This document shows positions 5,442-52,975 of a stretch of 64,000 nucleotides of DNA, in pieces (position 1 is the first letter of the stretch; every line of letters starts with the position of its first letter). The stretch lies in contig OZ244902.1 of NCBI GenBank assembly GCA_965221635.1, positions 479,957-543,956 of the forward strand, given 5' to 3'. Source of the stretch: Candidatus Aldehydirespiratoraceae bacterium. Its GTDB lineage: Bacteria; Actinomycetota; Acidimicrobiia; Acidimicrobiales; Aldehydirespiratoraceae. Made by a program: the position numbers and the translations under genes. Below the pieces are notes generated by a model. That model worked only from the letters and a program-made list of their open reading frames with translations. It made no database searches and was not told the origin of the DNA.

Positions 5442-5614
5442 ACGCCCGAGGCCAGGGGACGTAGCCGCGCCGAGGCTTCACCGGCGCCGGTGTTGAAACT
5501 CGCACCCGCGTCCATCCCGGCGGTTCGGGCGAAGCCTTGCGTTTGCCCATGCCACATTGGTTGTTGTGGCCACTCTTGGTGGGGGGTTGCTGTGGCCACT
5601 TTTGGTGGGGCGTG

Positions 5615-7566: not shown

Positions 7567-7695
7567 TCGAAGCTCCCCACCGGTTGGCCGGTCCGCTGCC
7601 AACCCGCACGAACACCGCTAGCGCCGGACCACGACCACTGCCAACGCTGGACCACGACTACTGCGAGAGCCGGACTTTCCGGCTGGTGTCGAGTG

Positions 7696-11627: not shown

Positions 11628-13189
11628 AGCGGCACGTTGGCGTGTTTGCGCTGTGGGATCTCCTCACGTTTGGAGTCCAGCATGCGCAGCCCGGCCACCA
11701 CCTTGCGCCTGGTTTCGGAGGGTTCGATCACCTCGTCCACGAAACCACGCTCAGCCGCGATGTAGGGATTCGCCAGGCGCTGCGTGTAGTCCTCCACCAG
11801 TTCCTGGCGACGAGCGGCCGGGTCGTCCGCTTCGGACAGTTCGGCTCGGTGAATGATCTCCACCGCACCCTGAGGGCCCATCACCGCTATCTCGGCGGTG
11901 GGCCAGGCGTAGCACAGGTCCGAGCCCACGCCCTTTGAGTCCATCACCACGTACGCCCCGCCGTAGGCCTTGCGGGTGATCACCGAAATGCGTGGCACGG
12001 TCGCCTCGCAGTAGGCGTACAGCAGCTTGGCACCGTGGCGGATGATGCCGCCGTGTTCCTGATCCACACCTGGCAGGAAGCCGGGCACGTCCACGAAGGT
12101 CACCAACGGAACGTTGAAGGCGTCGCAGGTGCGCACGAAACGGGCGGCCTTCTCCGCGGAGTCGATGTCGAGCACCCCGGCGAGCACCATTGGTTGGTTG
12201 CCCACCATCCCCACCGTGCGACCGTCCACCCTCGCGAAACCGCACACGATGCTCGTGGCCCAATGGGCGTGATACTCGAAGAAGTCGCCGTCGTCGGCCA
12301 CTTCGGTGATCACCGCCTTCATGTCATAGGGCACGTTGGGGCTCTCGGGCAGCAACGTGTCGAGCGACTCACACAGCCGGTGCGGGTCATCGGTGGACTT
12401 GTACACGGGTGGCTGTTCGAGGTTGTTCGACGGAAGGAACGACAGCAGCGTCTTCACGTCGTCGAGGGTGTCGTGTTCGCTGTTGGCCACAAAGGTCGCC
12501 ACGCCGGACTTGGTGCTGTGGCTGGTGGCGCCGCCCAGATCCTCCAGCGACACCTCCTCGCCGGTCACGGTCTTCACCACATCGGGGCCGGTGATGAACA
12601 TGTGCGACTTCTCGCGCACCATGAAAATGAAATCGGTCATCGCCGGGCTGTACACCGCCCCACCCGCGCACGGGCCCAAAATCACCGAGATCTGCGGAAT
12701 CACGCCCGACGCGGCCACGTTGCGGAAGAAGATCCCGCCGTAGCCGTCGAGGGACACGACGCCTTCCTGGATGCGAGCCCCGGCGCCGTCATTGAGGCCG
12801 ATCATCGGCGCACCGGTGGACAACGCCAGATCCATCACCTTGTGCAGCTTCTCGGCGAACACCTCGCCCAGCGCCCCGCCCATCACCGTGAAGTCCTGGG
12901 CGAACACGAACACCTTGCGCCCGTCGATGGTGCCCCAGCCGGTGATCACACCGTCGGTGTAGGGGCGGTCGGCGAGGTTGGCGGTGTGCGCCCGGTGGCG
13001 GGCGAGCATGTCGAGTTCGTGGAAGGAGTGGTCGTCGAGCAGGTAGTCGATGCGCTCCCTTGCGAGGAGCTTCCCCTTTTGGTGCTGGCGGTTCACTGCC
13101 CGCTCGGGGCCGGCTTGTTCGGCCTGGGCCTTTCGTTGCCTCAGGTCTTCGAGTTTTTCCTGCATGGAGGGGCCGGTCACGGCCCGCAA
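11624..13189 (-). CDS. pccB: propionyl-CoA / acyl-CoA carboxylase carboxyltransferase (beta) subunit
   Basis: 521 aa, full-length carboxyltransferase. Motifs include ...GGALGEVFAEKLHKVMDLA...GPCAGGAVYSPAMTDF... and ...AYGGAYVVMDSKGVGSDLCYAWPTAEIAVMGP.... Confidence 0.9.
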   Translation of the reverse strand: MRAVTGPSMQEKLEDLRQRKAQAEQAGPERAVNRQHQKGKLLARERIDYLLDDHSFHELDMLARHRAHTANLADRPYTDGVITGWGTIDGRKVFVFAQDFTVMGGALGEVFAEKLHKVMDLALSTGAPMIGLNDGAGARIQEGVVSLDGYGGIFFRNVAASGVIPQISVILGPCAGGAVYSPAMTDFIFMVREKSHMFITGPDVVKTVTGEEVSLEDLGGATSHSTKSGVATFVANSEHDTLDDVKTLLSFLPSNNLEQPPVYKSTDDPHRLCESLDTLLPESPNVPYDMKAVITEVADDGDFFEYHAHWATSIVCGFARVDGRTVGMVGNQPMVLAGVLDIDSAEKAARFVRTCDAFNVPLVTFVDVPGFLPGVDQEHGGIIRHGAKLLYAYCEATVPRISVITRKAYGGAYVVMDSKGVGSDLCYAWPTAEIAVMGPQGAVEIIHRAELSEADDPAARRQELVEDYTQRLANPYIAAERGFVDEVIEPSETRRKVVAGLRMLDSKREEIPQRKHANVPL

Positions 13190-13404
13190 GGCTACCCGTA
13201 AGGCTTCTCCCGGGCGCTCGTGGACGTGTGCTCGCTGGGCTTTGGGGGCCCTCGCGAGCGCTCGCTCACATCAACGGATCGCGCCACTCACACCCCTGCT
13301 CACACCGGCGCAAGGCCAGACCTGGACTCTCACTCACAACGCCGACGGCGCGACTTCTACCCTCGCTCACATCGGGACGGCGCGATTTGGACCGTTGCTA
13401 ACAC

Positions 13405-13497
13405 CGGCGGGCGGGGCCTGACCGTTGGCCGTTTCCGGAACGGCTTCACTTCGTTGCAGATTGTTCCGCAAGCCGGCCAACGGCCACCCGCCCGCCT
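13405..13497. repeat. 93-nt extended-hairpin element, copy 1 (inverted relative to copy 2 at 48368-48460)
   Basis: CCGGCGGGCGGGGCC...GGCCACCCGCCCGCC forms a long imperfect palindrome. Its reverse complement matches 48368-48460 at all but 6 positions (hand alignment). Confidence 0.8.
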
Positions 13498-14169
13498 ACA
13501 CGCGCACATTGCCACCGATCCGCATCGGGCCACTGGTCGCCAGGACGGCCAAACGCTACGTCGGCACGCTTGCCCAGCGCTGAGAGCCCTGTTCGCAGTC
13601 GGCCATGTCACCAGCGGTCGACCTTTCCGCCCGGGTGGCACAAGGCTCGTGCCGGTACGCCACCGGGTGAATCAGCATGGTCACCGGAGGCTGCCGCGTG
13701 TTGTGCTGGCCCGCTGGTTTGGGAGGGACTACGGTGGTGGCGATGTTGAGGGTCTGGACGTGTCATTTGGTGGCGGGGTTGGTGTTTGTGGCTGAGTGTG
13801 TGTTGGTTTCGGCGGTTGGGGCAGATGATGGTTCGGACGATGTGGATGGTGTTGGGGTGTTGATGGCGAGCATGGTGCGGCCTTAGGCGCAGGATCCGAG
13901 CTTGGGCACGGCGATAGGTGGCGATGCGATGGTGAGACTGGAGTGGCCACCGTGGAGGGATCCAGCGTGGGACACAACTGTGTTGGGGCTTTGGTTGTGG
14001 GACCCAAGAAGGACCGGTGTGTTCCTAAGCTGAGGAGATTGATTCGTGAAGGCAGAGATGTGACTCCGTGGGAAGGTACTGCCCGGCTTAGCGAAGCCAA
14101 ATGCCGAAAGTTGTTCCCTGGTTTGACGGGATGGATTCCCGGCTGAGGGTGGAGCTGAGGAGCGTTTTC

Positions 14170-16299
14170 ATGGGGCGTGCTTGTGATTTTGAATACCGCT
14201 TTAGAGTGTACATCAGATTTGGTAAGGTTACTGTCACTGACGCTGCATATTCAATCGAGGGCCGTGAGTGGGTCGGGTGGGATTGGCGGCCTGATGTGCC
14301 GGTGAATTGGGTTGGTTCAGGGCACTTGGGAAGATTGGATCCAGGCGTGCTGGGCAAAGTGATTTTGGGACATGCGGTGCCCCGATTGGCGTTTTATGGG
14401 TTCTCGTGGATTGTGCCTCGTGAATTAAACTCGAAGGCATTGGATGTTCCGAATCTTGGGAACTTGTCGCGTACGAGTGCAGATGTGTTCATGACGTCGG
14501 ATGGGTTGGAAGCGCGGTTCAGTTTCATGCACAACCCTTGCATGCCACACCAGTCCCACGATTTCTCGATCTTGTTGGATTCTTGCCTTTCGCCGCTTCT
14601 GGAGGGTGACCCTGATGGTGCAATTGCCGAGTTGGGTCCATTTCTTGTGGCTCCATGGGGTGATCCGGAGCTGTTGGGGCATTGTGTGCTGAAGGTGTTC
14701 GAGATGGCAGGGCCACCTGTGGGTAAGGGGATGCCCGGGTCGGTGTTCGAATCGTTGCCTCCCAAAGGCCGCATAGGGATCCACAAGGCGGCGCTGAGCG
14801 GTGATCTGGGCCTTTTACCGGCACGTCCGCGACGTGTTGATCCCCCTGACAAGGAAGGGACCACGCCGTTGATGCTGGCCTCGGGTGCTGGGCACGCGCC
14901 AATGGTGAGGCGGTTGCTTGAAATGGGCGCTGATCTGCTTGTGGAGGACGGGCAGGGAAGAGCGGCGTTGCACCATGCCGCAGGGTCGGGAAGTGTTGGC
15001 GTGGTGGGGTTGCTGGTCGGAGCTCGTGCCGACGTGTCTGCGGGTGACATGGTTGGTGAGACCGCGTTGCATGTGGCTGCATCGCGAGGCGATGTGGACG
15101 TGGTTCGATGCCTCGTTGCCGCGGGCGCCGATCTCAACGCGAGTGATGCGCTGTACGGGTCGACGCCGTTGCATCGCGCTGCGCGCGGGGATCACGCCGG
15201 GGTCATCGAGGTGCTGCTGGACGCGGGGGCTGCTGTGGATGCTCGCAACGAGGCCGGTCGCACACCGTTGCATGTGGCAGCAGGATTCGCCGGCGCCGAG
15301 GCCCTCGGGGTGCTGCTGGACGCTGGTGCCGATGTGAAGGCCACCGATGATCGGTCGGAGACGGCGTTGCACCGGCCGGTGTTCTTTCAGCACATGCGCA
15401 TCATCGAAATGTTGCTCGCGCATGGCTTGGATGTGGCTGCGGCTGATGTTGAGGGCAACACTGCGCTACATGTTGCCGGGTTGATGAACCGCTCCCAAGC
15501 CGCAGAAACGTTGCTTGCCGCAGGTGCGGATCCCGAAGCGCTCAATATGGAAGGACTGACCGCGTTGGATTTGGCGATCGTCAACTATCACGTTGACACC
15601 ATCAGTTATGGCCCGGAGCACAACGCGGAGGTGGCAGATGTTCTGTTGGCCCATGGTGCAACGATCTCAGCGATGCGGATTCCCGTGTCAGACCGGCACC
15701 CGTTGTGGCCCCATCTCACCCCACGAAAGCTGCTGCGTCGAGGCACCGGTGACATCAACTACTACAGGCTGCCCGACATGCCCAAAGTCATGCGCCAAAG
15801 GCTCCCACCTCGAGGCGACGAGAATTATCCTGCTGTGTGTTACACCATCGGCGTGCCCACCCTGCTGCACGACGCCGTAGCCAAGAACCTGCGCAGAGTG
15901 GTGGAGGCTCTACTCGACAGCGGCGCATCACCAATGACTGCTTTGCGCGATTCGCGAGATGGCACTCCGCTGCACGTGGCGGTACGCACCGGCAACGTCG
16001 ACATGGCCAAACTACTGTTGGACCGAGGCGCGGACGTCAACATGACCATTGCCAACACCTCTGAACCACAAGACGACGACCACCACATGAGCCTGACTCC
16101 GCTGCTTATGGCGGCACAGGACAATAATCTCGAAATGGCGACGCTCCTGTTGAACCACGGAGCCAACGTCAACTGCCACACTGCGCGCCTCGACCATTCG
16201 CCATGGACACCAACGGAGTACGCCGAGCCCGGAACCGAACTGCACGATCTGTTGAGATCCAAAGGCGGCAAAACAGCCGAAGAACTCAACCTCAAATAA
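14170..16299 (+). CDS. ankyrin-repeat protein, paralog 1, with uncharacterised ~230-aa N-terminal domain
   Basis: Start re-picked at ATG 14170 (MGRACDF...) to match the paralog N-termini (709 aa). Repeated G.TPLH.AA..GH..VV..LL..GAD units. No signal peptide or TM. Confidence 0.85.
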   Translation: MGRACDFEYRFRVYIRFGKVTVTDAAYSIEGREWVGWDWRPDVPVNWVGSGHLGRLDPGVLGKVILGHAVPRLAFYGFSWIVPRELNSKALDVPNLGNLSRTSADVFMTSDGLEARFSFMHNPCMPHQSHDFSILLDSCLSPLLEGDPDGAIAELGPFLVAPWGDPELLGHCVLKVFEMAGPPVGKGMPGSVFESLPPKGRIGIHKAALSGDLGLLPARPRRVDPPDKEGTTPLMLASGAGHAPMVRRLLEMGADLLVEDGQGRAALHHAAGSGSVGVVGLLVGARADVSAGDMVGETALHVAASRGDVDVVRCLVAAGADLNASDALYGSTPLHRAARGDHAGVIEVLLDAGAAVDARNEAGRTPLHVAAGFAGAEALGVLLDAGADVKATDDRSETALHRPVFFQHMRIIEMLLAHGLDVAAADVEGNTALHVAGLMNRSQAAETLLAAGADPEALNMEGLTALDLAIVNYHVDTISYGPEHNAEVADVLLAHGATISAMRIPVSDRHPLWPHLTPRKLLRRGTGDINYYRLPDMPKVMRQRLPPRGDENYPAVCYTIGVPTLLHDAVAKNLRRVVEALLDSGASPMTALRDSRDGTPLHVAVRTGNVDMAKLLLDRGADVNMTIANTSEPQDDDHHMSLTPLLMAAQDNNLEMATLLLNHGANVNCHTARLDHSPWTPTEYAEPGTELHDLLRSKGGKTAEELNLK

Positions 16300-16619
16300 G
16301 TCCACCGCTTTCCTTAGAGATCGAAGTGACTCCTCTTCGGTCTGTGCGACCACCGACAGCGCTTCCCCGGCCATCACAACTTGGCACAATCCAGCTAATG
16401 ATTACCCGACACAATTGGGGATAGAGTCAAAACCCACGGAAACCCGAGAAGCAGAGAATCGGGAGATGACATGCCCTCAGCACATGCGACCAACGGCGGA
16501 TGAACCAAATGCCAGAAAATGTTCGCCGCGATGACGTGTAGCCATGTCTGGTCATGCGAAATCTATGGGGAAGCTGCGGCGGCGCGGGCGGTGAGCATGA
16601 GAATTCTGGGGTGACTCAG

Positions 16620-18788
16620 ATGGCTCGTGCCTGTGGTAGAAGGTTCAATTTTGAGATTTTCCTGCGATTTGGGAAGGCGACGATCACGGATGAGTCGTAT
16701 TCGCGAGCGGGGCGGGAGTGGATCGGGTGGGATTGGCGACCTGATGTTCCGGTAGATTCTGTTGGATCTGATGAGTTGTCTAGGTTGGATCCTGGCATGC
16801 TGGGAAAGGCAATTGTGGAGCATGCTGTTCCATGCCTGGCTCTTTCCGGGTTTGATTGGAGGGTCTGTCACGAATTGACACTGAAGGCAATGGGTGTCCC
16901 AAATTGGGTAAAACTCGAACGAACGAGCGCGAAGTTGGTCATGTGTTCAGATGGACTTGAGACGCGGTTCATTCTCTTGTGCAATCCTAGGATGCCTGGA
17001 CAGCGGTCTGATGGGTCAACGTCCATAGATTCCCGACTGTCGGTTCTCCGCGGAGTCGGTTCAGATCTCCTGGAGCGCGAGATCGGTGGTGAGGTTGCAG
17101 CGACGGATCCGTTTCTGGTGGCTCCTTGGGGTGATGCGGAAATGTTGGGGCATTGTGTCTTGAGGGTGTTCGAGTCGGCGGGGCCACCTGTGGGCAAGGG
17201 CATGCCCGGGTCGGTGTTCGAGCCGCTTCCTCCCAAGGGACGCATAGGAATGCACCGTGCCGCGCTGAGCGGTGACATGCAGTCGCTTCCCACGCGCCCA
17301 CGGCGGGTGGATCCGCCTGATGAGGATGGAATCACCCCATTGATGCTCGCCTCGGGCGCCGGGCACCTGCCCATGGTGAAGCGATTGCTTGAAATGGGCG
17401 CCGACTACACACTGGTGGATCTACAGGGGCGAACTGCGGTGCACCACGCGGCACGGTCGGGCAACGCGGAAGTGATGCAAGCAATGTTGGGTGCGGGTGC
17501 TGACGCAGCTGCAGGTGACGTGGCTGACGAGACGGCGTTGCACGTTGTAGCGGCGCGAGGTGACCTTGCCTTGGTTGAGTGTCTGGTAGGGGCTGGGGCA
17601 AATGTGGATGCGGTTGACGGGCTGTACGGGTCGACGGCGTTGCATCGCGCGGCGCGCGGCGATCACGCCGCGGTCATCGGGGCGTTGGTGGCGGCCGGAG
17701 CGTCGGTAGATGCTCGCAACGAGGCGGGTCGCACACCGTTGCAGGTCGCAGCGGGATTCGCCAGCGCCGAGGCGCTGGAGGTGCTGCTGGCCGCGGGTGC
17801 CGATGTGAACGCCACCGATGATCGCTTGGAGACGGCGTTGCACCGGCCCGTGTTCTTTCAGCACATGGGCATCATCGAGATGCTGCTTGCACATGGCGTG
17901 AATGTGGCAGCGGCTGATGTTGAGGGCAACACTGCACTGCACGTGGCCGCGTTGATGAATCGGAACAGAGCCGCGGAACGGCTGCTTGCAGTGGGTGCCC
18001 ACGTGGAGGCGTTGAACGTCGAGGGGTTGACTGCGTTGGATTTGGCGATCGTGAACTATCACCTCTCCACGATCAAGCATGGTGTGGAACGCAACGCGGA
18101 GGTGGCAGATGTGCTGTTGTCCCACGGGGCAACAGTTGCGCCGATGCGGCTTCCGGTGGCAGACCGGCACTTGTTGTGGCCCCATCTCACCCCGCGAAAG
18201 CTGTTGCGTCGAGGCACGGGGGACATCAACTACTACAAGCTTCCCGACGTGCCCAAAGCGGTGCGTCGCAAACTCCCATCGCGAAGCAGCGAGAGCTACC
18301 CGTCGGTCTGCTCCAGCGTCGGCGCGCTCTCGCTGCTGCACGACGCGGTAGCGAAGAACCTGCCCAGAGTTGTGGAGGCTCTACTGGACAGCGGCGCGTC
18401 GGCGATGACGGCCACGCGCTGCCTTGGAATCGGAACGCCGCTTCATGTGGCTGTGCGCGGTGGCAACATCGACATGGTCAAGCGGCTCTTGGGCCGGGGC
18501 GCGGATGTAAACATGATCGCCGCGAATGCGCCGCTCCCCAAATACTTCAGCGCCTACTTGACGATGACACCGCTGCACATCGCAGCCCAAGAGAAGGACT
18601 TCGACGTGATAAAGCTTCTGGTGGATCACGGCGCCGATCTCAACAAGGTAGCCATACAATCAAGCAGCGTGCCGTGGACTGCTACGGATTACGCCGAACG
18701 CGTAGAGGAGTTGTATGACTACCTGCGAGCCAACGGCGGCAAGAAAGCCGAAGAACTCAAACTACGCAGACTACCCCGCCCTCCCTAA
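16620..18788 (+). CDS. ankyrin-repeat protein, paralog 2
   Basis: Start at ATG 16620 (MARACGRRF...), 722 aa. It is collinear with paralogs 1 and 3 over its whole length. Confidence 0.85.
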   Translation: MARACGRRFNFEIFLRFGKATITDESYSRAGREWIGWDWRPDVPVDSVGSDELSRLDPGMLGKAIVEHAVPCLALSGFDWRVCHELTLKAMGVPNWVKLERTSAKLVMCSDGLETRFILLCNPRMPGQRSDGSTSIDSRLSVLRGVGSDLLEREIGGEVAATDPFLVAPWGDAEMLGHCVLRVFESAGPPVGKGMPGSVFEPLPPKGRIGMHRAALSGDMQSLPTRPRRVDPPDEDGITPLMLASGAGHLPMVKRLLEMGADYTLVDLQGRTAVHHAARSGNAEVMQAMLGAGADAAAGDVADETALHVVAARGDLALVECLVGAGANVDAVDGLYGSTALHRAARGDHAAVIGALVAAGASVDARNEAGRTPLQVAAGFASAEALEVLLAAGADVNATDDRLETALHRPVFFQHMGIIEMLLAHGVNVAAADVEGNTALHVAALMNRNRAAERLLAVGAHVEALNVEGLTALDLAIVNYHLSTIKHGVERNAEVADVLLSHGATVAPMRLPVADRHLLWPHLTPRKLLRRGTGDINYYKLPDVPKAVRRKLPSRSSESYPSVCSSVGALSLLHDAVAKNLPRVVEALLDSGASAMTATRCLGIGTPLHVAVRGGNIDMVKRLLGRGADVNMIAANAPLPKYFSAYLTMTPLHIAAQEKDFDVIKLLVDHGADLNKVAIQSSSVPWTATDYAERVEELYDYLRANGGKKAEELKLRRLPRPP

Positions 18789-18850
18789 TCCCCGGGATGG
18801 ATCTTCTCCTACATATAACCGCACCTATGGCGTTCGCCACCCACCACAAC

Positions 18851-18879
18851 TTGACACAATCCCGTTGACGAAGTAGCAT
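18851..18879 (+). promoter_or_regulatory. candidate promoter in the paralog 2-3 spacer
   Basis: TTGACA (18851-18856), a 17-nt spacer, then TAGCAT (18874-18879). It sits inside a 22-nt box conserved with the paralog 1-2 spacer (16371-16392, where the hexamer is TTGGCA). Confidence 0.35.
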
Positions 18880-19043
18880 CAGAAGATGGCACCAAGACCA
18901 CGAGACACAAGGATCCAGCATCCGCAAGTGAGAGAACACGCGAGTCTGGGTGAAAGCAACAGTGGTAGTGAAACGAATGGAGGGAGCTGGTCCTAAGCTG
19001 GTCGGTCGGCTGGCGTTGATGCTCGAATTGGAGGTTTGGTGTT

Positions 19044-21194
19044 GTGGCTCGTGGATGTGGGACGGCTTTTTCGTTTGATGTGTACTTGCGTTTTGGTGAG
19101 TTGACAGTCGGTGATGTTGCTTATGCGGAGGCGGGCAGAGAGAATTTGGGATGGGATTGGCGTCCGGAAGTGCCGGTGAATCAAACCGGTTCTAATCGAA
19201 CTACCCGACTGGATCCAGGGCTTGTGGGAAAGTTGATAGTGGGACACGCCGTTCCGCGTCCAGCCTTCACCGGGTTCGACTGGACAGTGTATGAGGACCT
19301 GGAATCGATAGCGACAGGCGCCCCAAGCCTAGGGAACCTCTACCGCACAGGGGCACGGTTGATGATGGATTCCGATGGAATCGAAGCAAGATTCAGCTTG
19401 ATTAGTGGGCCGCATTTATTGCAAAGTGCTGACAAAGCCTGCATCAACGTAGATGACCGTTTGTCGTGCTTGACGGTGTTCGATACTGATTATGAGCTGA
19501 TGGGGGAAGGTCCGTTCTTGGTTGCGCCGTGGCGTGATCCGGAGCTTCTAGGTCACTGTGTGTTGAGAGCGTTCGAGTTGGTGGGTCCTCCCTTGGGAAA
19601 GAACATGCCCGAGTCTGTGTTCATACCGTTGGCTCCGAAAGGTCGCATTGGAATGCACCGTGCTGCGCTGAGTAGCGACTTGGGGTTGTTGCCGAAACGT
19701 CCGAGTCGGGTGGATCCACCTGACCGGGAGGGTATTACGCCGCTGATGCTAGCCGCGGGGGCCGGTCATGGGTCCATGGTTCGGGCTCTGTTGGATCTTG
19801 GCGCCGACTGCGCGTCTGAAGACTCGCAATGCCGCACCGCGTTGCATCACGCTGCCACTTCGGGCAGCGTGAGCGTGGTGGAGATCTTGTTGGCCGCGGG
19901 TGCCGATGCTGGCGCGGTGGACGCTTTCGGTGAGACTGCATTGCATGTGGCGGCATCGCGTGGGGATGTTCGTGTGGTGGAGGCTTTGGTCGCTGCTTGT
20001 GCGGATGTGAATGTGAGTGACTTGCTGTATGGCTCCACACCGTTGCATCGAGCTGCGCGCGGCAATCACGGTGGTGTGATTGAGGTGTTGGCAGCTGCGG
20101 GAGCGTCCGTGGATGCCCGCAACGAAGCAGGTCGCACAGCGTTGCAGGTGGCAGCAGCATTCGCCAGCCCAGGCGCGGTGTCCGTGTTGTTGAACGCGGG
20201 CGCAAATGTGAACGCTACCGATCACCGGCTGGAGACGGCGTTGCACCGTCCGGTGTTATTTCAGCATTTGGACATCATCGCCATGTTGTTGGAGTTCGGG
20301 GTGGATGTGGGCGCGGCTGATTTTGAGGGCAACACTGCGCTGCACGTGGCCGCGTTGATGAACCGTCACAAGGCGGCAGAGTTGCTCCTTGCCGCGGACG
20401 CGGATGTGGATGCGTTCAACACTGAGGGGCTCACGGCGTTGGATTTGGCAATTGTGAATCGTCACGTCGGTACCCTCGCGTTCGGTGTGGAACACAACGC
20501 CGAAGTGGCCGATGTGTTGTTGGCTCACGGGGCCACGATTGTGCCACATCGGCTCCCGGTGGCGGACCGGCACGTGTTGTGGCCACAGCTCACCCCGCGA
20601 CGCTTGCTGCGTCGCGGCACCTCGGACATCGACTACCAACGGTTGAAGGACATCCCAACAGCGCTCCGACAGAAGCTACAGACATGGAGCAAGAACCGCA
20701 ACCATCCACCGGTATGCATCAACGTCATTGCGCGGTCTTTGATGCATGACGCCGTGGCCAAAGATCTGCCCAGAGTTGTGCAGGCCTTGCTGGACAGTGG
20801 CGCCTCTCCCATGACCTCAGTACGCGGGAATCAGATTGGCCCGCCGCTGCACGTGGCCGTGGAGACCGGCAACATCGCCATGGCGAAATTGTTGTTGGAG
20901 CGGGGCGCAAACCCGAACATGCAAACAGGCAACCAGCCCCAGCTCGAAGAAGAAATCTACCACTTCAGCCTGACACCACTGCTGTTGGCGACTCAAGCAA
21001 ACAATTCGGAGATGGTAACCCTTTTGTTGGAGTACGGCGCTGACGTAAACTGTCACACTGCACGCATAAACCAACAACCACGCACTCCCACCGACTACGC
21101 CGAGCCCGGAACTGAACTACACGAATTGCTAAGAGCAAACGGTGGCAAGACCGCCAAGGAACAAAACATAAGATGGACCCACCGCCCGTACTAA
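19044..21194 (+). CDS. ankyrin-repeat protein, paralog 3
   Basis: GTG start at 19044 (MARGCGTAF...) preceded by GGAGG at 19030-19034. 716 aa. Confidence 0.85.
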   Translation: MARGCGTAFSFDVYLRFGELTVGDVAYAEAGRENLGWDWRPEVPVNQTGSNRTTRLDPGLVGKLIVGHAVPRPAFTGFDWTVYEDLESIATGAPSLGNLYRTGARLMMDSDGIEARFSLISGPHLLQSADKACINVDDRLSCLTVFDTDYELMGEGPFLVAPWRDPELLGHCVLRAFELVGPPLGKNMPESVFIPLAPKGRIGMHRAALSSDLGLLPKRPSRVDPPDREGITPLMLAAGAGHGSMVRALLDLGADCASEDSQCRTALHHAATSGSVSVVEILLAAGADAGAVDAFGETALHVAASRGDVRVVEALVAACADVNVSDLLYGSTPLHRAARGNHGGVIEVLAAAGASVDARNEAGRTALQVAAAFASPGAVSVLLNAGANVNATDHRLETALHRPVLFQHLDIIAMLLEFGVDVGAADFEGNTALHVAALMNRHKAAELLLAADADVDAFNTEGLTALDLAIVNRHVGTLAFGVEHNAEVADVLLAHGATIVPHRLPVADRHVLWPQLTPRRLLRRGTSDIDYQRLKDIPTALRQKLQTWSKNRNHPPVCINVIARSLMHDAVAKDLPRVVQALLDSGASPMTSVRGNQIGPPLHVAVETGNIAMAKLLLERGANPNMQTGNQPQLEEEIYHFSLTPLLLATQANNSEMVTLLLEYGADVNCHTARINQQPRTPTDYAEPGTELHELLRANGGKTAKEQNIRWTHRPY

Positions 21195-21569
21195 CGCTGA
21201 GGCCACTCTTCATCTCTCTAAAGCCAACCGCTGTTCTCACTGAACCCATCTCGCCACAGGCTCAATAGCAACTGGTCTGACGACAATGGGAGTACCATTC
21301 AAGCCCAAGAATAACCCGCATCAGCAGATCAAGAGACGGCATAGCGTGAAGGCTGGTAGCGAGGTTGGGCTCAGCCAATTTGGGGAGTTGTATCCTAGGG
21401 CGGTTTGGTGGCATGGCTGCTGGTGCTTTGAATGTGTCGGGATTGAGATGAGGAGTGCGTGTGGCGCTGAGGGCTCGATTGGGGTGCCCTGGATTTTGAG
21501 AGCTGAGATTGACTGATTGTACCTTGTCGGGACTCGGCTGGTTGGGATTGGTGTCGGTTGAGGCTTGGG

Positions 21570-24053: not shown

Positions 24054-27000
24054 CGGCACGGCATCCGACCCTACGTCGCGCACATCACAGGTTGTGACGC
24101 TCGACCGGGGACTTGCGGCGCTTCACGGCGACGCCGTGCATCTGGTGCAGACCTGAGGGGCGCCTAGTTGGTTGGGGGGCGTTGGTTGCCGAACTCGGCG
24201 ACTGTTGCGATGCCGTCTCCGTTGGTGTCCGCACGCAACGCCGGGTACTCGGCGGAGGTGCCAAAGTCCCACGCCTGATCCCAGTGGGTGTAGATGGCGC
24301 TGTGGGCGCCGCCACCGATGAGTTCAGCGGTGGTCTTGGCGAAACCGCCTGCGCTTGTGGTGAGCCCGGTGACGGTTTGATCCCAGTAGCTGTAGATGGT
24401 GTCGCTGCTTGAGTCGGCTATGCCGACGAGCCCGCCGGTGTTCTTGTTGCCCACCACGGTTGCCCGCGAGTAGCTGTGCTGAATGCCGAAACCGTTGTTG
24501 ATCCCGGCCAGGCCGCCCACACGGTTCTTTCCCGTCACCCGACCCGCGGCGTAGCTGTCGCTGATGAGCCCACCGCTGTTATGCCCAACAAGGCCACCCA
24601 CACGACGGTCGCCGGCTATGTGACCGGTGGCGTAGCTGTGGGTGATGATGCTGTTGCTGTAGCCCACCAGACCACCCGAAACTCGCCCGGTGGCGGTGAC
24701 ATCAACGGTGCTGTAGCTGTAGGAAACGTGGTTGACGCTCTCACCGATGAGGCCCCCGATCCATCCGCCTGCGGTGATGTTGCCGGTGGAGGAAGCGTGG
24801 GCAACCACCGCCCAGCTCAGCCCGGCCAGCGCGCCGGTGTTGTAGGCACCGCCGGTGATGTCCACGTTGCCCAGATGCAACCGGTTCACCGCCGCGCCGA
24901 GTCGTAGCTCCGCGAACAAGCCCACGTAGTTCTGGTTGCGGTTGATGTGCAGGTTGCGGATCGAGTGGCCGTTGCCTTCCAGGCGGGCGTCGTAGTGGCT
25001 GATGGGTAGCCAGCCCGCGCCGTTGTTCCAGTACAGGTCGCCTGAGTCTGCTTGCCCGCTTTCGTTGGTGTCGAGGTTGATGTCGGCTGTGAGTTCGTAA
25101 CCCGTGCAGCCACTGTCGGGGCATCCCATGGCGTCGTACTGCCCGCCCTTGAACGCTTCGTAGTAGGCAGCGGCGTCACCCGAACCGGGGGTGCCTGTAC
25201 CGGCCGGGTCCCAGCGGATCGCGTTGAGCTGCGCAGGGCTGGTCACCTCGATCAGGCCGTCATCGTCGAGGTCGTGGTCGTTGGAGCGCTGCCGCCCGAA
25301 CTCCAGCCACGAGGCCTGCCCGTCGCTGTTGAAGTCCACCATCAACACGGGGTATTCCTTGGAGTTGCCGAAGTCCCACGCCGGGTTGCTCCAAGTGGCG
25401 AAAATTCCCGAGTACCCGACGGCGCCGACTTCGGTTTCGCTGTCGCCCTGCAGCCCGGTCTGGGTTTGTGCGGCGCCTCCGCCGGCGCTGGTGGTGGTGC
25501 CGGTGGTGGTGCTGTCCCAGTAGGCGTCGCTGTCCACCGATGCCGAATTCTCGGCGAGGCCCACCAAACCGCCAATGTTCGTTCCGGCAGTTACGGGCCC
25601 CGCGGCGTATCCCTCGTGAACGGTTCCGCCGCTCATGCGCCCGATCAGGCCACCCACGCTGGAGCCGCTGCCACCGGGGCCGGTCACCGAACCGAACGCG
25701 TAAGCGAACTCCATGGTGGTGGACTCGGCCAACCCGATCAGCCCGCCACCGAGATGTGACTGCCCAGACGGGGCGTTCACCGTCACGTCGGACTCGGCGT
25801 ATGAACGCGACACCTTGGCGTTGAGCGATCTGCCGATCAGGCCGCCCACGTCGTTTGTGCCGGTGACCGCGGCGTGTGAGTAGCTCTCGTTGATCTCCAC
25901 CTGCGAGTCCTTGAACGTGCCCGCCACGCCGCCGGTGGTGCCCGAGGGCGCGTTGCCAACCACGGTGCCGGTCACCCCGACACGGCTGATCGGTGCTCGA
26001 CCGGTGCCAACAAGCGCGCCCACGTCGGCCTTGTTGCCGGCCACGGTGATGTTCACATCAGCCAGAACCACGTTGCGCAGGCTCGCAGTGGGAGCGGTCT
26101 GCGCGAACAGGCCGTAAGAGTCGTCACCACCGGCGGTTTGGTTGATGAGCAAGTTGGAGATGGTGTGACCGTTGCCGTCGAAGGTGGCTCGGTACTTGGG
26201 CCCTATCGGCGCCCAGCCCTTGCCGGCGTTCCACCACACGCCGCCGTGATCGGTGGCGTCCACGTCACCGTCGCGGTCGGAGTCGAAATCAAGACTCGTG
26301 GTGAGTTCGTAACCGGTACACACCTGATCGTCGGTGAGGGTTTCGTCCTCGTTGCAACCCATGCCGGCCTCCGCTGTGGGGAACGCCGCCAGGTAGGTGG
26401 CACTGTCCGCATCGGCGACCGTGCCGTTGCCGTCGAGATCCCAGCGCAGCGCATTCAACTGGCGAAGACTGCCCACCTCGATCAGACCGTCATCATCGAG
26501 GTCGTAATCCAGAAGTGTCACCACCGTCACCGCAAACGTGGCCGTGCCGGTTTGGCCGTAGTAGTCGGTGGCCACCGCGCTCACCTCGGCGGCGCCGGCC
26601 GCCACCCCGGTGATGGTGATCACTGTTCCGGTGGTGTCCAACACGGCTGTTGCCGCCGTGGAATCCGAACTTGACACTGTGTACGTCAAGGCGCCTTGGG
26701 TGCCCACGTCGAACACCTCCGCACCGGCGGATTCAATGTGCACCGAGGCTTGCCCGGACACCGCAATCGTGTGTGCGGCGATCGGATTGGTCACCGAAGG
26801 GGCGCTGGTGTCTCGCTGGGTTCCGAACTCGGCCCAACTCGAGGCGCCGTCCCCGTCGAAGTCAGCCACCAACGCCGGATATTCGATCTCGTTGCCGAAA
26901 TGCCACGACGAGTCCGCCCAGGTGCTGTAGATCCCGGTGTAGGTGTCGGCGTTGACAGTGGCGTCGGTTTCGGACCGCAACTGCGAGGTGGTTTTGGCGG

Positions 27001-30000
27001 TTCCGCCGCCCGCGCTGGTGGCCGCAGTGGTGGCAACGGAATCCCAGTACGCGTCCGAATCCACCGTTGCGCCGCCTGAGGCGCTTCCCACGAGCCCCCC
27101 TAGATCACCCGGAAAGGCCGCGTAGTTGCCGTACTGGACCGAACCCGCCGCGAATCCCTCACGAACCTGGCCACCATCTGCTGACCCGACCAATCCACCC
27201 ACATCGGTGCTGGCATTCCACGGCGCGGACACGGCGGACTTGGAATAGCCGTACTCGATGGTTGCGCCGTTGGCGAAGCCCACAAGCCCACCCACTCGGT
27301 GCCGGCCTCCGTCGGAGTTTGTGTTCGATACCGGTCCGGTGGAGTAACTGCGAGTGAGGTTGATGCTTGATGCTCGGCCCAGCACACCGCCCACGTCGTT
27401 GCTGCCTGTCACCGCGGCGGTTGAGTAACTGTCGGCCATCGTCACCGAGAGTCCTCTCAGGATTCCCACGATGCCGCCTGTGGTGCCCTGATTGCCGGTG
27501 CCCGACACCGTCCCGGTCACACCAACACGGCTGATCGCCGCACGGGCGGTGCCGGCCAGAGCGCCCACGTCGGGCTTGTCTCCCACCACGGAAATGTCCA
27601 CGTCGGCCAAAACCAAGCCGCTTATGGCCGCGCCAACACCGATGTGTTCGAACAGGCCGAAGGACTCGTTGCCGCCTTCGGGTTCGTCGATGTACAGGTT
27701 TGAGATCGTGTGCCCGTTGCCCTTGAACGTCACGCTGTATGAGTTCGAGTCGTCACCGATCGGATCCCAGCCCTTGCCGCTGTTCCAGTAGGCCCCGGCG
27801 TGATCGGCGGCGTCCACATCCCCGTCTCCGTCACTGTCGAAGTCAAGGTCCGACATCAGTTCGTAGCCGTCACAACCGTCGGTGGGGCAGCCCATGGCAG
27901 TGATCGGGCTCGGGAATGCCGTCCGGTAAGCAGCAGCATTGCCGGCTGCATCGGCGGTGCCGTTGCCGTTGAGGTCCCAACGCATGGCATTGAGCTGAGC
28001 CAGGTCGCGAATCTCAAGCAAACCGTCGTTGTCGCCGTCGTAGTCGACGTTGGTGCTCACCGACACGTTCACGGTGGTGCTCACGCTCGCACCGTCGGCG
28101 TCAGTCGCGGTGATCACCAGCGGGCGATCTCCCGAGGCGTTCGCGATCACGTTCACCGTTGCGGTGGCCGCGTCGACTCTCGCAGAGTGATACGACTCGT
28201 GCAGGGTCGACACTGAGTAGTTGAGCGTGGTGCCGTCGGGATCGGTGAACACCGCGGCGCCGGAGGTTTCGAGAGGGATTGAACCCTGCCCGTACAAGGG
28301 AAGGCTCAGCGTGGCGACCGGGTTTGTGACGGTCGGGAATCCGTGGCCCGAAGCCACCGGGAACTCCACGAAGACGGCGCCGTGAGAATCGGTGGCCGTG
28401 ACCCGAATCGTGGCCGTGCCCTTGGCCACACCGGTGATGGTGACCGTGTCGGTGGCGCTGTTCAACGCCACGGTGGCCACCGAGGTGTCCGAAGAGGTGA
28501 CGCTGTAGGTGGGCTTGTCGTTGCTGCAGTATCCGAACACCGGGTTTGTGCCCGCCAGGGCAACCGTCGCGGTGGCGCCCACCGACACGTGCTGACCGGT
28601 GATGTCCCGGTTCTTGTGTACGCGCGTGTTGACGCGCTGGGTGCCGAACTCCGACCAAGTGGCGGCGCCGTCACCGTTGAAGTCCGCCACAATAGCGGGA
28701 TACACACAAGACGTGCCGAAATCCCATTCCGCTGTTGTCCAATCGCTGTAAATCCCCGTGTAGCCGGCAGCGGCAACGGTGGTGTTGGTGTCGATTTGCA
28801 GCTCCGAGGTGGTCTTGCCGGTGCCGCCGTCGCTGGTGGACTGACCCGTTGAGGTGGTGTCCCAATACGAGTCGGCGCTCACAACGCTGGAGTTGTCGAA
28901 CTTGTAACCCAGCAATCCGCCGACATCACCGGATGGGCCGTCGGACACCGCGCCGGTGGCGAAGGACTCGGAGATTTCCGAGAGGGTCAACTGTCCCGCC
29001 AGGCCGCCCACGTATCCGCTGGTGCTCTGAGTGACCGACACCGCACCCGTTGCATAGGACTGGATGACTTTGCTGTAGGCGTACACATCGCCGATGAGGC
29101 CGCCTACTCGGCAGAGCTTGCAGTTGCTTTCGGTGACCGCGCCGGTGGCGTAGCTGCGCTTCGCCGTGGAGTTGCGCAGTGTTCCGATCAGTCCGCCTGC
29201 GGCCACCGCGCCGTCCGAAACGTGGACGGTCACCGAGGCGGTGGAGTAACTGTCGGTGGTGGACGCGGCGTCTGCTCCGTCGGGGGTTCTTTGGTATCCG
29301 ACCAGTCCACCTGCGTGGGTCAGAGATCCGAGGGGAGGCGACAGGTTGCTCACGTTCACCGCGCCGGTGGAGTACACGGCGCGCAACTTGCCGCTGCTGT
29401 GCCCGGCCAGCGCCCCCACCTTCAGGTTGGCTCCGCTCGCGGTTATCGAAACGTCCGGCAGGCCGAGATGACGCACCTCGCCAGCAGTGCCGACCTTGGC
29501 GAACAAGCCGAGTTCGGTGAGGGAGGCTGCGTCTTGTGCGTTGATGTAGAGGTTCGAAATGGTGCGGTTGTTGCCGTCCAGGATGGCGGTGTATTCGCCG
29601 CCGATTGGCGTCCATCCCGCGCCGGAGTTCCAGTACGCGCCGTTGTGATCCGATGCGTCCACGTCGCCGTCGTTGTCCGAGTCGAAGTCCAGGTTGGCGT
29701 TGAGTTCGTAGCCGGTGCATGTGGGAGTCACCGCCTGCGAGTCACATCCCATCGCCGGCGCGGCGTTGGGGAACGCAGCGTCATAAGACGCCTGGTCCGC
29801 GGCTGCCACGGTGCCATCGCCGTCCAGATCCCAGCGCAACGCATTGAACTGCGCCAGATTGGCGATCTCTATGAGGCCGTCGTCGTCGGTGTCGTAATCG
29901 TTGGACAAGGCTTGAGCACCCAGCGGCACCGGTGTCGCGACAACAAGCAAAGCCGCCACCAACGCCATGGCCGCCGAGGCCACGGCCAGCTGCACCCACC

Positions 30001-30510
30001 AAACCCGGCATCTGGGTGGCAGACTGATTCCGATCACTTCGCGATCTACAGTGTCTCGGGCATTATCCCACATTGTTTGACCTCCACAAACAGACTGGCT
30101 GGCAACGTAGCAACGCCCTCGGCTCTTGTAAAGTCGAACGTTCTAGGGTCAGGTGTTGTGGTGGATGAGGGAGAGGTATGGTCTGATCAAAATACCAAGT
30201 AGAAGTTATTTGTCCGGATTTAGAGTGTTGCCAAGAGAACTATTGTCTTGATTAGTGATTGTTGAGTAACACTCATTTGCTTTGGCCAACAAAATCCCAG
30301 CACAAGGCGGAGAAGTCACACTAATGTTGTGTTGCAGAGATCAATAATTTGACAAGCGGATTGTGGGGACTGAGCCAATTCTGCGGGCGAGCCGAGTCTC
30401 GAGACACGCCCTGCAATCATGCAGTTTCAGGCCCACCAGGATGCCGTGCGGCAAAGAACAGTGACCGCAACCAAGAATCGGCGACGCAAACCCGAAAGAC
30501 CCTGCCATGG
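24054..30510. mobile_element. putative inserted cassette bounded by the ligase-3'-end direct repeats (no recombinase inside)
   Basis: Its content is the 1969-aa gene plus its AT-rich upstream region, bracketed by the 23943-24053 and 30511-30622 repeats. Mobility is an inference only. Confidence 0.35.
24164..30073 (-). CDS. giant secreted four-module protein (GLUG-motif beta-helix repeats, Asp-rich Ca-binding-like motifs, Ig-like domains)
   Basis: 1969 aa with an N-terminal hydrophobic signal/anchor (VQLAVASAAMALVAALLVVATPVPLGAQA). There are four copies of the module DYD.DDDGLIE...L.QLNA.RWDL.G.GT...MGC...C.GYEL...LDFDSD.DGDVDA.DH...YWN.G.GW.PIG...GNGHTISNLYI, followed by many (V/A)GGL(V/I/A)G repeats and YWD...KTT.EL...YPAL.ADFNGDG. 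Big/cadherin-like segments lie between modules. GGAGG sits 8 nt before the ATG. Confidence 0.85.
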   Translation of the reverse strand: MWDNARDTVDREVIGISLPPRCRVWWVQLAVASAAMALVAALLVVATPVPLGAQALSNDYDTDDDGLIEIANLAQFNALRWDLDGDGTVAAADQASYDAAFPNAAPAMGCDSQAVTPTCTGYELNANLDFDSDNDGDVDASDHNGAYWNSGAGWTPIGGEYTAILDGNNRTISNLYINAQDAASLTELGLFAKVGTAGEVRHLGLPDVSITASGANLKVGALAGHSSGKLRAVYSTGAVNVSNLSPPLGSLTHAGGLVGYQRTPDGADAASTTDSYSTASVTVHVSDGAVAAGGLIGTLRNSTAKRSYATGAVTESNCKLCRVGGLIGDVYAYSKVIQSYATGAVSVTQSTSGYVGGLAGQLTLSEISESFATGAVSDGPSGDVGGLLGYKFDNSSVVSADSYWDTTSTGQSTSDGGTGKTTSELQIDTNTTVAAAGYTGIYSDWTTAEWDFGTSCVYPAIVADFNGDGAATWSEFGTQRVNTRVHKNRDITGQHVSVGATATVALAGTNPVFGYCSNDKPTYSVTSSDTSVATVALNSATDTVTITGVAKGTATIRVTATDSHGAVFVEFPVASGHGFPTVTNPVATLSLPLYGQGSIPLETSGAAVFTDPDGTTLNYSVSTLHESYHSARVDAATATVNVIANASGDRPLVITATDADGASVSTTVNVSVSTNVDYDGDNDGLLEIRDLAQLNAMRWDLNGNGTADAAGNAAAYRTAFPSPITAMGCPTDGCDGYELMSDLDFDSDGDGDVDAADHAGAYWNSGKGWDPIGDDSNSYSVTFKGNGHTISNLYIDEPEGGNESFGLFEHIGVGAAISGLVLADVDISVVGDKPDVGALAGTARAAISRVGVTGTVSGTGNQGTTGGIVGILRGLSVTMADSYSTAAVTGSNDVGGVLGRASSINLTRSYSTGPVSNTNSDGGRHRVGGLVGFANGATIEYGYSKSAVSAPWNASTDVGGLVGSADGGQVREGFAAGSVQYGNYAAFPGDLGGLVGSASGGATVDSDAYWDSVATTAATSAGGGTAKTTSQLRSETDATVNADTYTGIYSTWADSSWHFGNEIEYPALVADFDGDGASSWAEFGTQRDTSAPSVTNPIAAHTIAVSGQASVHIESAGAEVFDVGTQGALTYTVSSSDSTAATAVLDTTGTVITITGVAAGAAEVSAVATDYYGQTGTATFAVTVVTLLDYDLDDDGLIEVGSLRQLNALRWDLDGNGTVADADSATYLAAFPTAEAGMGCNEDETLTDDQVCTGYELTTSLDFDSDRDGDVDATDHGGVWWNAGKGWAPIGPKYRATFDGNGHTISNLLINQTAGGDDSYGLFAQTAPTASLRNVVLADVNITVAGNKADVGALVGTGRAPISRVGVTGTVVGNAPSGTTGGVAGTFKDSQVEINESYSHAAVTGTNDVGGLIGRSLNAKVSRSYAESDVTVNAPSGQSHLGGGLIGLAESTTMEFAYAFGSVTGPGGSGSSVGGLIGRMSGGTVHEGYAAGPVTAGTNIGGLVGLAENSASVDSDAYWDSTTTGTTTSAGGGAAQTQTGLQGDSETEVGAVGYSGIFATWSNPAWDFGNSKEYPVLMVDFNSDGQASWLEFGRQRSNDHDLDDDGLIEVTSPAQLNAIRWDPAGTGTPGSGDAAAYYEAFKGGQYDAMGCPDSGCTGYELTADINLDTNESGQADSGDLYWNNGAGWLPISHYDARLEGNGHSIRNLHINRNQNYVGLFAELRLGAAVNRLHLGNVDITGGAYNTGALAGLSWAVVAHASSTGNITAGGWIGGLIGESVNHVSYSYSTVDVTATGRVSGGLVGYSNSIITHSYATGHIAGDRRVGGLVGHNSGGLISDSYAAGRVTGKNRVGGLAGINNGFGIQHSYSRATVVGNKNTGGLVGIADSSSDTIYSYWDQTVTGLTTSAGGFAKTTAELIGGGAHSAIYTHWDQAWDFGTSAEYPALRADTNGDGIATVAEFGNQRPPTN

Positions 30511-30622
30511 CGCATGATGCGCCCCCACCCGTACCGCACCCCCGAATGCTGCCGCTTCGACCAACTCGATAGAGCCAGCCCCCATGCCGCCAAGCGAAGT
30601 GCTGACAGCCTCCGGCTAAGCG
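30511..30622 (+). pseudogene. frameshifted relic of a DNA-ligase 3' end (direct repeat copy B)
   Basis: It translates RMMRPHPYRTPECCRFDQLD, against RMVRPRPDRTPESCRFDQLE in the ligase. A 1-nt insertion (cgaTagagcc) then breaks the frame. There is no ligase-like sequence upstream of 30511. Confidence 0.7.
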
Positions 30623-30646
30623 AGCCACATCGAAGGCCTGCGATAT

Positions 30647-30907
30647 CTAGGCGCGAGACTGCGATCCAAGCGGCAGATCCTCGTTGATCCCAACAACCTT
30701 GAGGTCGGGCACCCGTTCCACATCAGCCAGAGCCGACCGCACCGCCTGTGACAGCGATTCCGCCTCCCGGTCGAAACCCAGGTACTGCACGCCGTCGCGG
30801 CTGCCGAGCAGAGCGTCGTCGCAGCCGGCTTCGAACAGCGCGTCCGCCACGGCGTCCGTGTGAAGGTCGGCACCTTCCACGATCAACAGAAAATTGAACG
30901 AATCCAT
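30647..30907 (-). CDS. small acidic hypothetical protein
   Basis: 86 aa from ATG 30907 (MDSFNFLLIVEGADL...), with GGGAGG 6 nt upstream. It lies downstream of and co-oriented with the HTH-ImmA/IrrE gene. No family recognised with confidence. Confidence 0.5.
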   Translation of the reverse strand: MDSFNFLLIVEGADLHTDAVADALFEAGCDDALLGSRDGVQYLGFDREAESLSQAVRSALADVERVPDLKVVGINEDLPLGSQSRA

Positions 30908-31110
30908 CCTCAACCTCCCTCAGCCATGTGCTCGCACTCCCGAAGCGCAGCCAGCAGCCAACGCGCATGATCAGCAGGACTTCGCGGCGTAGAGGGCCAC
31001 TGACCCCTGGGTGGCGCCTCCGACACTACCCGGTGCTTTAGCCGGTCTCGAGTGTTGCGGGGTGTGTGCTTGTGGGAGTGGGAATCCCAGCCTGACCTAG
31101 GGGTGCTTGG

Positions 31111-44664: not shown

Positions 44665-44697
44665 TCCCAAGGCGCCACGTCCGAATCCACCCGTCAC

Positions 44698-48209: not shown

Positions 48210-48367
48210 CCACCAACAATACCCACCAAACCCCCCAAAGGCCCCAAAACCACCGCGCATCCCAAAGACCAACCAACCAACCGCGCAGCCCGCGACCAAG
48301 ACCAACACCAAGTCCCCAAAGGCACCCAGGGGGCAGCAAAGCCAAGGCGGGCGGGCCAGAAAATCAA

Positions 48368-48460
48368 GGCGGGCGGGTGGCCGGTGGCCGGCTTACGGAA
48401 CAATCTGCAGCGAAGCGAAGCCGTTCCGGAACCGGCCACCGGTCAGGCCCCGCCCGCCGG
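48368..48460. repeat. 93-nt extended-hairpin element, copy 2
   Basis: GGCGGGC.GGG.GGCC.GGTGGCCGG...CGGAAC, a 21-nt loop, then GTTCCG...CCGGCCACC..GGCC..GCCCGCC. It includes an 11-bp perfect helix (48381-48391 with 48432-48442). It lies in the divergent pncB / ABC-exporter spacer. Confidence 0.8.
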
Positions 48461-48523
48461 AGTGACCAACAGCCAGACACCGAGCAAAGCAGACGAAGGC
48501 CGGGTGATTCGTAGGATGCGCAG

Positions 48524-52972: not shown

Positions 52973-52975
52973 CAC

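Follow-up and report, generated by a model that had tools for sequence, protein, structure and literature searches.

The window analysed here, a 64-kb stretch of DNA, carries a hairpin repeat of 94 nt in two copies that lie in mutually inverted orientation. We propose, as a reading to which we give about an even chance, that it is a lineage-specific palindromic dispersed repeat residing in tolerant spacers, whose complementarity is kept through its own propagation. The feature is real and statistically non-trivial, and it most probably represents an ordinary kind of element in a little-studied lineage. An earlier sequence-only reading of the same DNA had left the choice between a REP/MITE-like element, a structured regulatory RNA and a protein-binding cruciform. 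The first of these fits best, whereas the second is weakened by the lack of an Rfam family, the absence of the hairpin from orthologous sites and its position upstream of the inferred promoters; the third is neither supported nor excluded.

The two copies and their boundaries

The reverse complement of 13404-13497 aligns without gaps to 48367-48460 and differs from it at six of the 94 columns (18, 29, 44, 50, 66 and 73), which corresponds to ~94% identity. Two inverted copies with six differences had been described before, with the reverse complement of 13405-13497 set against 48368-48460; the copies and the exact count of differences stand, but the register has to be moved by one nucleotide, the reverse complement of 13405-13497 corresponding to 48367-48459. 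A gapless extension of the alignment reaches 104 nt at 91% identity (13394-13497 and 48367-48470). The 3' tails that follow the hairpin match at nine of 14 positions (64%), with random identity farther out, and the 5' edge is sharp, with 13-27% identity in the preceding 15-41 nt. The size of the unit is 94-108 nt, from the hairpin alone to the hairpin with its 3' tail, and its end sequence is GGCGGGCGGGTGGCC. Between the copies, the hairpin is better conserved than the tail (94% vs 64%), and the loop is identical at 19 of 21 positions. The flanks read GCGTGT and TGTTAG on the two sides of copy 1, AAATCA and AGTGAC on those of copy 2, and no target-site duplication of 2-10 bp, in the form of a direct repeat common to both copies, was found at any plausible boundary.

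Table 1. Coordinates of the hairpin element, neighbouring features and repeats of relatives, and the parts of the hairpin
Feature	Position	Strand	Size	Sequence	Remark
Hairpin element, copy 1	13404..13497	-		AGGCGGGCGGGTGGCC... (forward reading)	covariance model 130.7 bits
Hairpin element, copy 2	48367..48460	+ (forward)			covariance model 131.4 bits
3' tail, copy 1	13390..13403	-		TGTTAGCAACGGTC	
3' tail, copy 2	48461..48474	+		AGTGACCAACAGCC	
Solo direct copy of the terminal 10-mer GGCGGGCGGG	48346..48355	+		AAGGCGGGCGGG	ends 12 nt before the first copy-2 GGCGGGCGGG arm (48368)
-10-like box, pccB	13189..13194	-		TAGCCT	8 nt before pccB GTG at 13180
-10-like box, pncB	48216..48221	-		TATTGT	6 nt upstream of an in-frame GTG (48209-48207) that leads into the conserved pncB N-terminus LHTDHYELTM
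-10-like box, ABC exporter	48512..48517	+		TAGGAT	6 nt upstream of the ATG (48524) of the ABC exporter
Repeat of relatives, L002	11414-15735			GGCCCGAGCGGCCCGTGAGCG[A/C]AGCGAAC	
Repeat of relatives, L034	2390-6120			GGCCCGAGCGGCCCGTGAGCG[A/C]AGCGAAC	
Repeat of relatives, L032	9934-9976			GGCCCGAGCGGCCCGTGAGCG[A/C]AGCGAAC	
Hairpin: outer stem			10 bp	GGCGGGCGGG/CCCGCCCGCC	
Hairpin: bulge on 3' arm			3 nt	GGC	
Hairpin: inner helix			13 bp	UGG/UCA and CCGKTGGCCG/CGGCCAMCGG	included in the helix
Hairpin: small internal loop				CUUR/GAAM	
Hairpin: upper stem			6 bp	CGGAAC/GUUCCG	
Hairpin: apical region			21 nt	AAUCUGCARCGAAGYGAAGCC	

The terminal 10-mer GGCGGGCGGG occurs five times in the 64-kb window against ~1 expected, and all five matches are at the two elements, namely the four hairpin arms and a solo direct copy beside copy 2; the latter is compatible with a template-switch scar and with a half-site alike. 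It can be hypothesised that the second copy was made once, through non-reciprocal copying (for instance by ectopic gene conversion, template switching or repair), from a sequence with neither function nor mobility, and that hairpin-templated correction within a strand, in place of selection, keeps the palindrome symmetrical. Two copies are known, no target-site duplication or transposase accompanies them, and the partial direct duplication of the terminal 12-mer beside copy 2 is a scar of the type left by template switching; local tandem repeats in many intergenic regions of the genome also point to slippage-prone spacers. However, 35 kb separate the copies, which are sharply bounded and point in opposite directions. 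The six differences between them, of which four are coordinated in pairs, would need time and constraint or repeated arm-to-arm correction, and the similarity left in the tails may reflect a defined unit or a preferred target. We hold a one-off event to be rather doubtful. The copies were also considered as the two ends of a single 35-kb mobile or invertible segment. This was rejected: the 35 kb between them is collinear with the closest relative (s50.ptg000052c) and carries dnaX, recR, the SRP RNA and two tRNA-Ser genes, and the copies are therefore taken as independent insertions.

Fold and pattern of substitutions

Each copy, read on either strand, folds into one long hairpin of ~33 bp, the parts of which are listed in Table 1. 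Folded as RNA, both copies on both strands reach -59 to -68 kcal/mol (z = -5.4 to -6.5), with a small difference of 1-3 kcal/mol between strands; folded as DNA, they reach -33 to -41 kcal/mol (z = -5 to -7), and none of 200 shuffles was equally stable in either setting. In a sliding scan of the 64 kb on the two strands, the two elements provide the top four 100-nt windows for GC-corrected stability. The next most stable fold, at -63 to -64 kcal/mol, is formed by GGCGGGTCGAGGCGAGGC/GCCTCGCAGCGACCCGCC at 52971-53080, at the 5' end of a polyprenyl synthetase gene. Stable local folds are also present in a low-GC intergenic region at 30074-31110 (36-42% in 100-nt windows; for example 30181-30320), whose neighbours are a gene for a GLUG-repeat protein of 1969 aa (24164-30073, minus strand) and an HTH/Peptidase_M78 gene, with a HipA-like kinase gene at 32669-33919.

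The six differences break none of the stem pairs, and all 31 main-stem pairs are standard in both copies. At columns 18/73, T:A in copy 1 corresponds to G:C in copy 2 (G48384:C48439), which is a compensatory change. Columns 44/50 are able to pair as well, A with T in copy 1 and G with C in copy 2, closing an apical C-GAA-G mini-hairpin that reads GCGAAGC in copy 2 and ACGAAGT, with pairing kept, in copy 1. The change of A to C at column 66 gives copy 2 an extra pair (G25:C66), and column 29 is the sole difference that is unpaired in both copies. The copy-2 heptamer fits the GCGNAGC motif, which is described as an extraordinarily stable DNA mini-hairpin (PMC13037366). With the DNA parameters of ViennaRNA, no mini-hairpin is predicted in copy 1, and in the RNAalifold consensus column 50 pairs instead with G41, with a G:C to G.U change (G41:Y50); the predicted apical fold is ambiguous between this pair and 44:50.

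A simulation with six random substitutions gave a probability of 0.012 that all 30 shared pairs are spared, and one of 0.0025 that they are spared and at least one compensatory pair arises; for only two sequences, the shuffle control built into the pair-counting tool carries no information. Complementarity is preserved beyond chance, as far as two sequences can show. The sequence-only reading is borne out in that both copies make the same long hairpin and that G48384:C48439 corresponds to a T:A pair of copy 1, and the substitution pattern and simulation agree, within the limit of two sequences, with its view that structure is kept and the palindrome is not a chance one. Its placing of the other four differences in the loop or bulges is true of column 29 and needs revision for columns 44 and 50, which can pair, and for column 66, which adds a pair to copy 2.

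Genomic setting, putative promoters and relatives

A spacer of 910 nt separates pccB (minus strand) from the nearest of three ankyrin-repeat paralogues, which is divergent from it. Copy 1 is located in this spacer, ~600 nt from the ankyrin gene and 210 nt upstream of the -10-like box of pccB. The neighbours of copy 2 are pncB (minus strand) and an ABC exporter (plus strand), whose -10-like boxes are 146 nt and 52 nt away, respectively; this arrangement of genes is kept in all five relatives fetched. The -10-like hexamers near the starts of pccB, pncB and the ABC exporter (Table 1) fit actinobacterial -10 boxes that drive leaderless mRNAs. Those of pccB and of the ABC exporter, two of the three, are conserved across genera: TAGGCT stands 6-9 nt ahead of the ABC-exporter start codon in five relatives (L031-L035), and GTAGCCTT, at 8 nt from the GTG of pccB, does not vary between the window and three relatives, whereas the sequence upstream of it is unalignable. 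In L001, L002 and L003 the pccB -10-like box is found ~25 nt before the pccB ATG. These observations suggest that the pccB, pncB and ABC-exporter mRNAs are leaderless and that leaderless transcription is the rule there. Because the boxes precede the start codons by 6-8 nt, both hairpins would be upstream of the promoters, the positions of which we infer from these boxes, and outside the 5' UTRs. The earlier statement that the copies sit in 5' regions of minus-strand genes is correct by position, but they are probably not within the transcripts.

This arrangement bears on the proposal that the element is a structured RNA, either a stand-alone small or antisense RNA or one made from an upstream promoter, which could serve as an RNase III substrate, a stabiliser or an attenuator, with pccB and the ABC exporter as targets of the forward strand or pncB and the ankyrin gene as targets of the reverse strand. 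Such a role would be in keeping with the very stable RNA fold, with the preserved pairing, including a G.U pair (column 14:77) restricted to the forward strand and the G:C to G.U change at G41:Y50 of the RNAalifold consensus, with a forward orientation that is sense to pccB at copy 1 and to the ABC exporter at copy 2, and with the occurrence of UUGAUUUUCU after copy 2 on the reverse strand. However, no Rfam family rises above noise at the hairpins, the homology begins exactly at the hairpin base and therefore includes no common promoter, and the -10-like boxes 6-8 nt before the starts imply leaderless mRNAs that lack the hairpin. The copies have no U-tract in common, no terminator-like site is called at the hairpins, the element is missing from the orthologous loci, and the two strands differ by only 1-3 kcal/mol. 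We consider a structured RNA unlikely. Specifically, a cis-regulatory element of the 5' UTR disagrees with a location outside the inferred transcripts and with the lack of any match to the covariance model in 87 kb of orthologous DNA. The candidate role of an intrinsic terminator, in which a U-tract follows a GC-rich hairpin where a transcription unit ends, was rejected as well, both copies being between divergent genes without a common T-run or U-tract.

The closest source-named homologues of PccB and the ABC exporter come from MAGs labelled Acidimicrobiales, Acidimicrobiaceae or Acidimicrobiia, and in the next closest genome the protein identity is 88% for PccB and 76% for the ABC exporter. 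The hairpin is absent from the orthologous pncB/ABC-exporter spacer in five relatives and from the region upstream of pccB in three, and an energy scan of the relatives' loci detected no comparable long hairpin. The pncB/ABC-exporter spacer varies in length from ~70 nt (L035) to ~330 nt (the window) and contains different lineage-specific short repeats in each genome. A conserved operator in this spacer was considered from the words GCCCGCCC and TCAGGCCC in L031 and GAGCGAAGCGAAC in L032 and rejected except as a lead, since the words do not recur throughout the five relatives and in L035 the spacer measures only ~70 nt. Another array, GTGAGCGTT with a 20-nt period, is present at 17482-17550 of L003 and absent from the window.

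A host element acting at the level of DNA, as a cruciform or as the binding site of a protein that recognises the arms or the apical mini-hairpin, would tune or insulate the two divergent promoters under negative supercoiling. The element is a long inverted repeat with a relatively AT-rich centre, sited where divergent transcription accumulates negative supercoils, and both copies are between divergent genes and upstream of -10-like boxes. Both strands fold almost equally as DNA (z = -5 to -7), the changes related to pairing are all strand-symmetric (T:A/G:C, A:T/G:C and G.A/G:C), the GCGAAGC of copy 2 is the stable mini-hairpin motif mentioned above, with pairing kept in copy 1, and the loop and arms are better conserved than the 3' tail. 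Against this, the same promoters lack the element in relatives, in a spacer of down to ~70 nt; pccB, pncB, the ABC exporter and the ankyrin gene have no obvious regulatory logic in common; two sites in divergent spacers are statistically not unusual; the copy-1 mini-hairpin is not predicted with the ViennaRNA DNA parameters; and a 21-nt spacer between arms disfavours cruciform extrusion. A DNA-level role for the host is, in our view, improbable. A more specific form of it, which we regard as quite improbable, is a host-selected, non-selfish cruciform or single-strand hairpin with a GCGAAGC-type cap, located between back-to-back leaderless promoters, that absorbs the negative supercoils arising from transcription or recruits a structure-specific protein; purifying selection on its sequence and pairing would explain the 94% conservation of the hairpin against ~64% for the tail, as well as two compensatory pairs among six differences.

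Several other sequence features surround the copies. The three tandem ankyrin-repeat paralogues at 14101-21500, of ~730 aa each and 70-84% nucleotide identity, have a GC content of 59%, against ~66% in the flanks and elsewhere, and in relatives the position upstream of pccB is taken by Wadjet-like genes (L001) or an AAA_21 ATPase (L003); this stretch looks like a variable island. The interval 48220-48345, between the pncB -10-like box and copy 2, is C/A-rich on the plus strand, with (CCAA)n-like runs, and G/T-rich on the pncB-sense strand, and a comparable C/A-rich stretch is found 5' of copy 1, on the copy's own strand, at 13700-14010. GTGAG[CT] boxes cluster at two places only in the window. 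The first cluster (13269-13370, minus strand), between copy 1 and the pccB -10-like box, consists of five boxes at spacings of 33, 34, 12 and 22 nt, approximately multiples of 11; the second (44689-44807, plus strand), between tadA and tRNA-Ser(CGA), consists of six boxes with an exact 20-nt period and the unit CCCGNNNNCGGTGAGCRCAA, which the hairpin 3' tails GGTGTTAGCAAC and GGAGTGACCAAC resemble. These boxes could be phased, putative protein-binding sites. Intergenic tandem arrays with units of 23-26 nt, all of different sequence, are present at 5559-5610, 7607-7675, 56930-57009 and 59650-59759, with units such as TGTCAAAAACCGGGATTCTGACC (x3.5) and AGGGTACAACTTCGCGGGCTCTT (x4.8).

Further copies, origin and comparison with known systems

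No third copy was found in the 64-kb window by blastn with word size 7, by a pattern allowing three mismatches or by the covariance model R1 with filters off, for which the next best match in the window after the two copies had E = 0.14. The sequence-only reading had proposed a search of relatives by blastn and covariance model and a scan of Rfam. The former, with R1 run without filters, returned no element in 87 kb of orthologous DNA. In the latter, only the SRP RNA and tRNAs of the window pass the gathering threshold of Rfam 15, and no family is assigned to either hairpin; in E-value mode on 13150-14150, the best match at the hairpin is a miRNA model with E = 6.6. Collections were scanned with exact sub-patterns, which copies diverged at those positions would escape. 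The 27-mer of the 5' arm had no match among GTDB representatives, where an inner 3'-arm pattern had four chance matches; a 19-mer of the loop gave 20 chance matches in JGI metagenomes, all in unrelated contexts; and patterns of the loop, of both ends and of the 3' end gave nothing in IMG/VR, or chance matches inside coding sequence. Neither PLSDB nor phage genomes contained a significant match in sensitive blastn searches. With Pfam, no transposase, RAYT or IS was detected in the window genes scanned, which include all those between and beside the copies, and no MITE family described for Acidimicrobiia was found in the literature.

Two further candidates were rejected. The only open reading frames that cross the hairpins (13357-13641, minus strand; 48178-48465, plus strand) have a shared frame through them but are non-homologous outside, and in this frame all but one of the six differences alter the amino acid, which excludes a protein-coding repeat. 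Integron attC sites possess R''/R' core sites (RYYYAAC ... GTTRRRY) at the hairpin base and accompany cassettes and an integrase; the stem bases here are GGCGGGC/GCCCGCC, without core sites, and the window has no integrase gene.

We therefore return to the palindromic dispersed repeat of the MITE/REP kind. In this model, a short non-coding unit, composed of the ~94-nt hairpin and a short 3' tail, would have been inserted by copying into two or more unrelated intergenic spacers of an uncultured Acidimicrobiia chromosome, with opposite orientations at the two sites seen. Each of these sites would be an untranscribed stretch that separates two back-to-back promoters, probably leaderless ones, and may tolerate additional DNA. 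The near-perfect arms of ~33 bp would constitute the recognition structure of the mobilising or copying machinery, either as terminal inverted repeats bound by a transposase or as a single-stranded DNA hairpin recognised by an enzyme of the HUH/Y1 type. Propagation would continue only in lineages of the element with complementary arms, and it is proposed that the differences are for this reason compensatory or at unpaired positions. The model is consistent with 94% identical copies that have unrelated flanks, a sharp 5' edge and opposite orientations, with arms that resemble terminal inverted repeats and retain 31 of 31 main-stem pairs, and with a non-coding sequence that is absent from orthologous spacers and would be outside the neighbouring mRNAs. 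Against it, two copies are known, from 64 kb of a 3.59-Mb genome, target-site duplications are lacking, no transposase was detected among the window genes scanned and the exact sub-pattern and blastn searches of collections turned up no relatives of the element; in addition, the good conservation of the loop (19/21) and the excess of hairpin over tail conservation (94% vs 64%) fit a host function equally.

If the element is MITE/REP-like, it would be one of the earliest palindromic dispersed elements recorded from Acidimicrobiia. Its value would then lie mainly in marking genome plasticity, in offering a target for strain typing and a pointer to its transposase, and in cautioning annotators against calling ORFs or regulatory RNAs across it. 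If selection were instead acting on it as a DNA or RNA structure of divergent leaderless promoters, it would be a new type of cis-element in a poorly studied actinobacterial class, a reading that two copies and the lack of relatives do not favour.

Some MITEs are one imperfect palindrome from end to end, as are the Correia elements of Neisseria, the enterobacterial ERIC/IRU and the pneumococcal RUP. The element resembles them in its size of ~100 nt, its non-coding and intergenic nature and the folding of the whole unit through long terminal inverted repeats, as well as in its occurrence in either orientation, its species specificity and its absence from the orthologous sites of relatives. It is unlike MITEs in that no target-site duplication is visible, no parent IS or transposase was identified in the window genes scanned, no sequence similarity was found in the collections searched, and only two copies are seen. 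MITEs are defined by terminal inverted repeats of at least 10-15 bp, a length of 50-800 bp, the lack of a transposase or coding capacity, a target-site duplication of 2-10 bp, dispersed copies and the ends of a cognate IS (PMC11602168). Inverted repeats are present here in the 31 intact main-stem pairs and the size is small and non-coding (94-108 nt); a target-site duplication is missing, and the dispersed copies amount to two in 64 kb, with no weaker ones.

REP sequences are palindromes of 20-40 bp tagged by a conserved GTAG or CGTC, associated with RAYT/TIRYT transposases of the IS200/IS605 type and mostly found between convergent or co-directional genes (PMC3733652). A high copy number is a further mark of REP/RAYT systems. 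Like them, the element is a GC-rich imperfect palindrome; its asymmetric bulges are conserved, and so is a short tail on one side. REPs are not expected to duplicate their target, and the hairpin would, as in their case, be recognised as single-stranded DNA. The element differs from them in its length (94 nt vs 20-40 bp), its location between divergent genes and the lack of a RAYT gene among the window genes scanned; a GTAG abuts copy 1, whereas copy 2 has CAAG, so the tag is not common to both.

The closest comparison within the clade is with a dispersed and often tandem repeat of the relatives, GGCCCGAGCGGCCCGTGAGCG[A/C]AGCGAAC(AAGAGCGGGCAAAC), with 12 copies in three small loci (Table 1) and none in the 64-kb window. 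It differs from the element in having no long hairpin and units of ~44 nt that are often in tandem, with nothing alignable beyond an 11-mer. It has the word AGCGAAGCGAA in common with the copy-2 loop, and its GTGAGC core resembles the hairpin 3' tail. The two are alike in belonging to the same clade and in occupying the same type of location, including the very same pncB/ABC-exporter spacer. That the relatives own a dispersed family of this kind implies that a fast turnover of lineage-specific intergenic repeats is typical of the clade.
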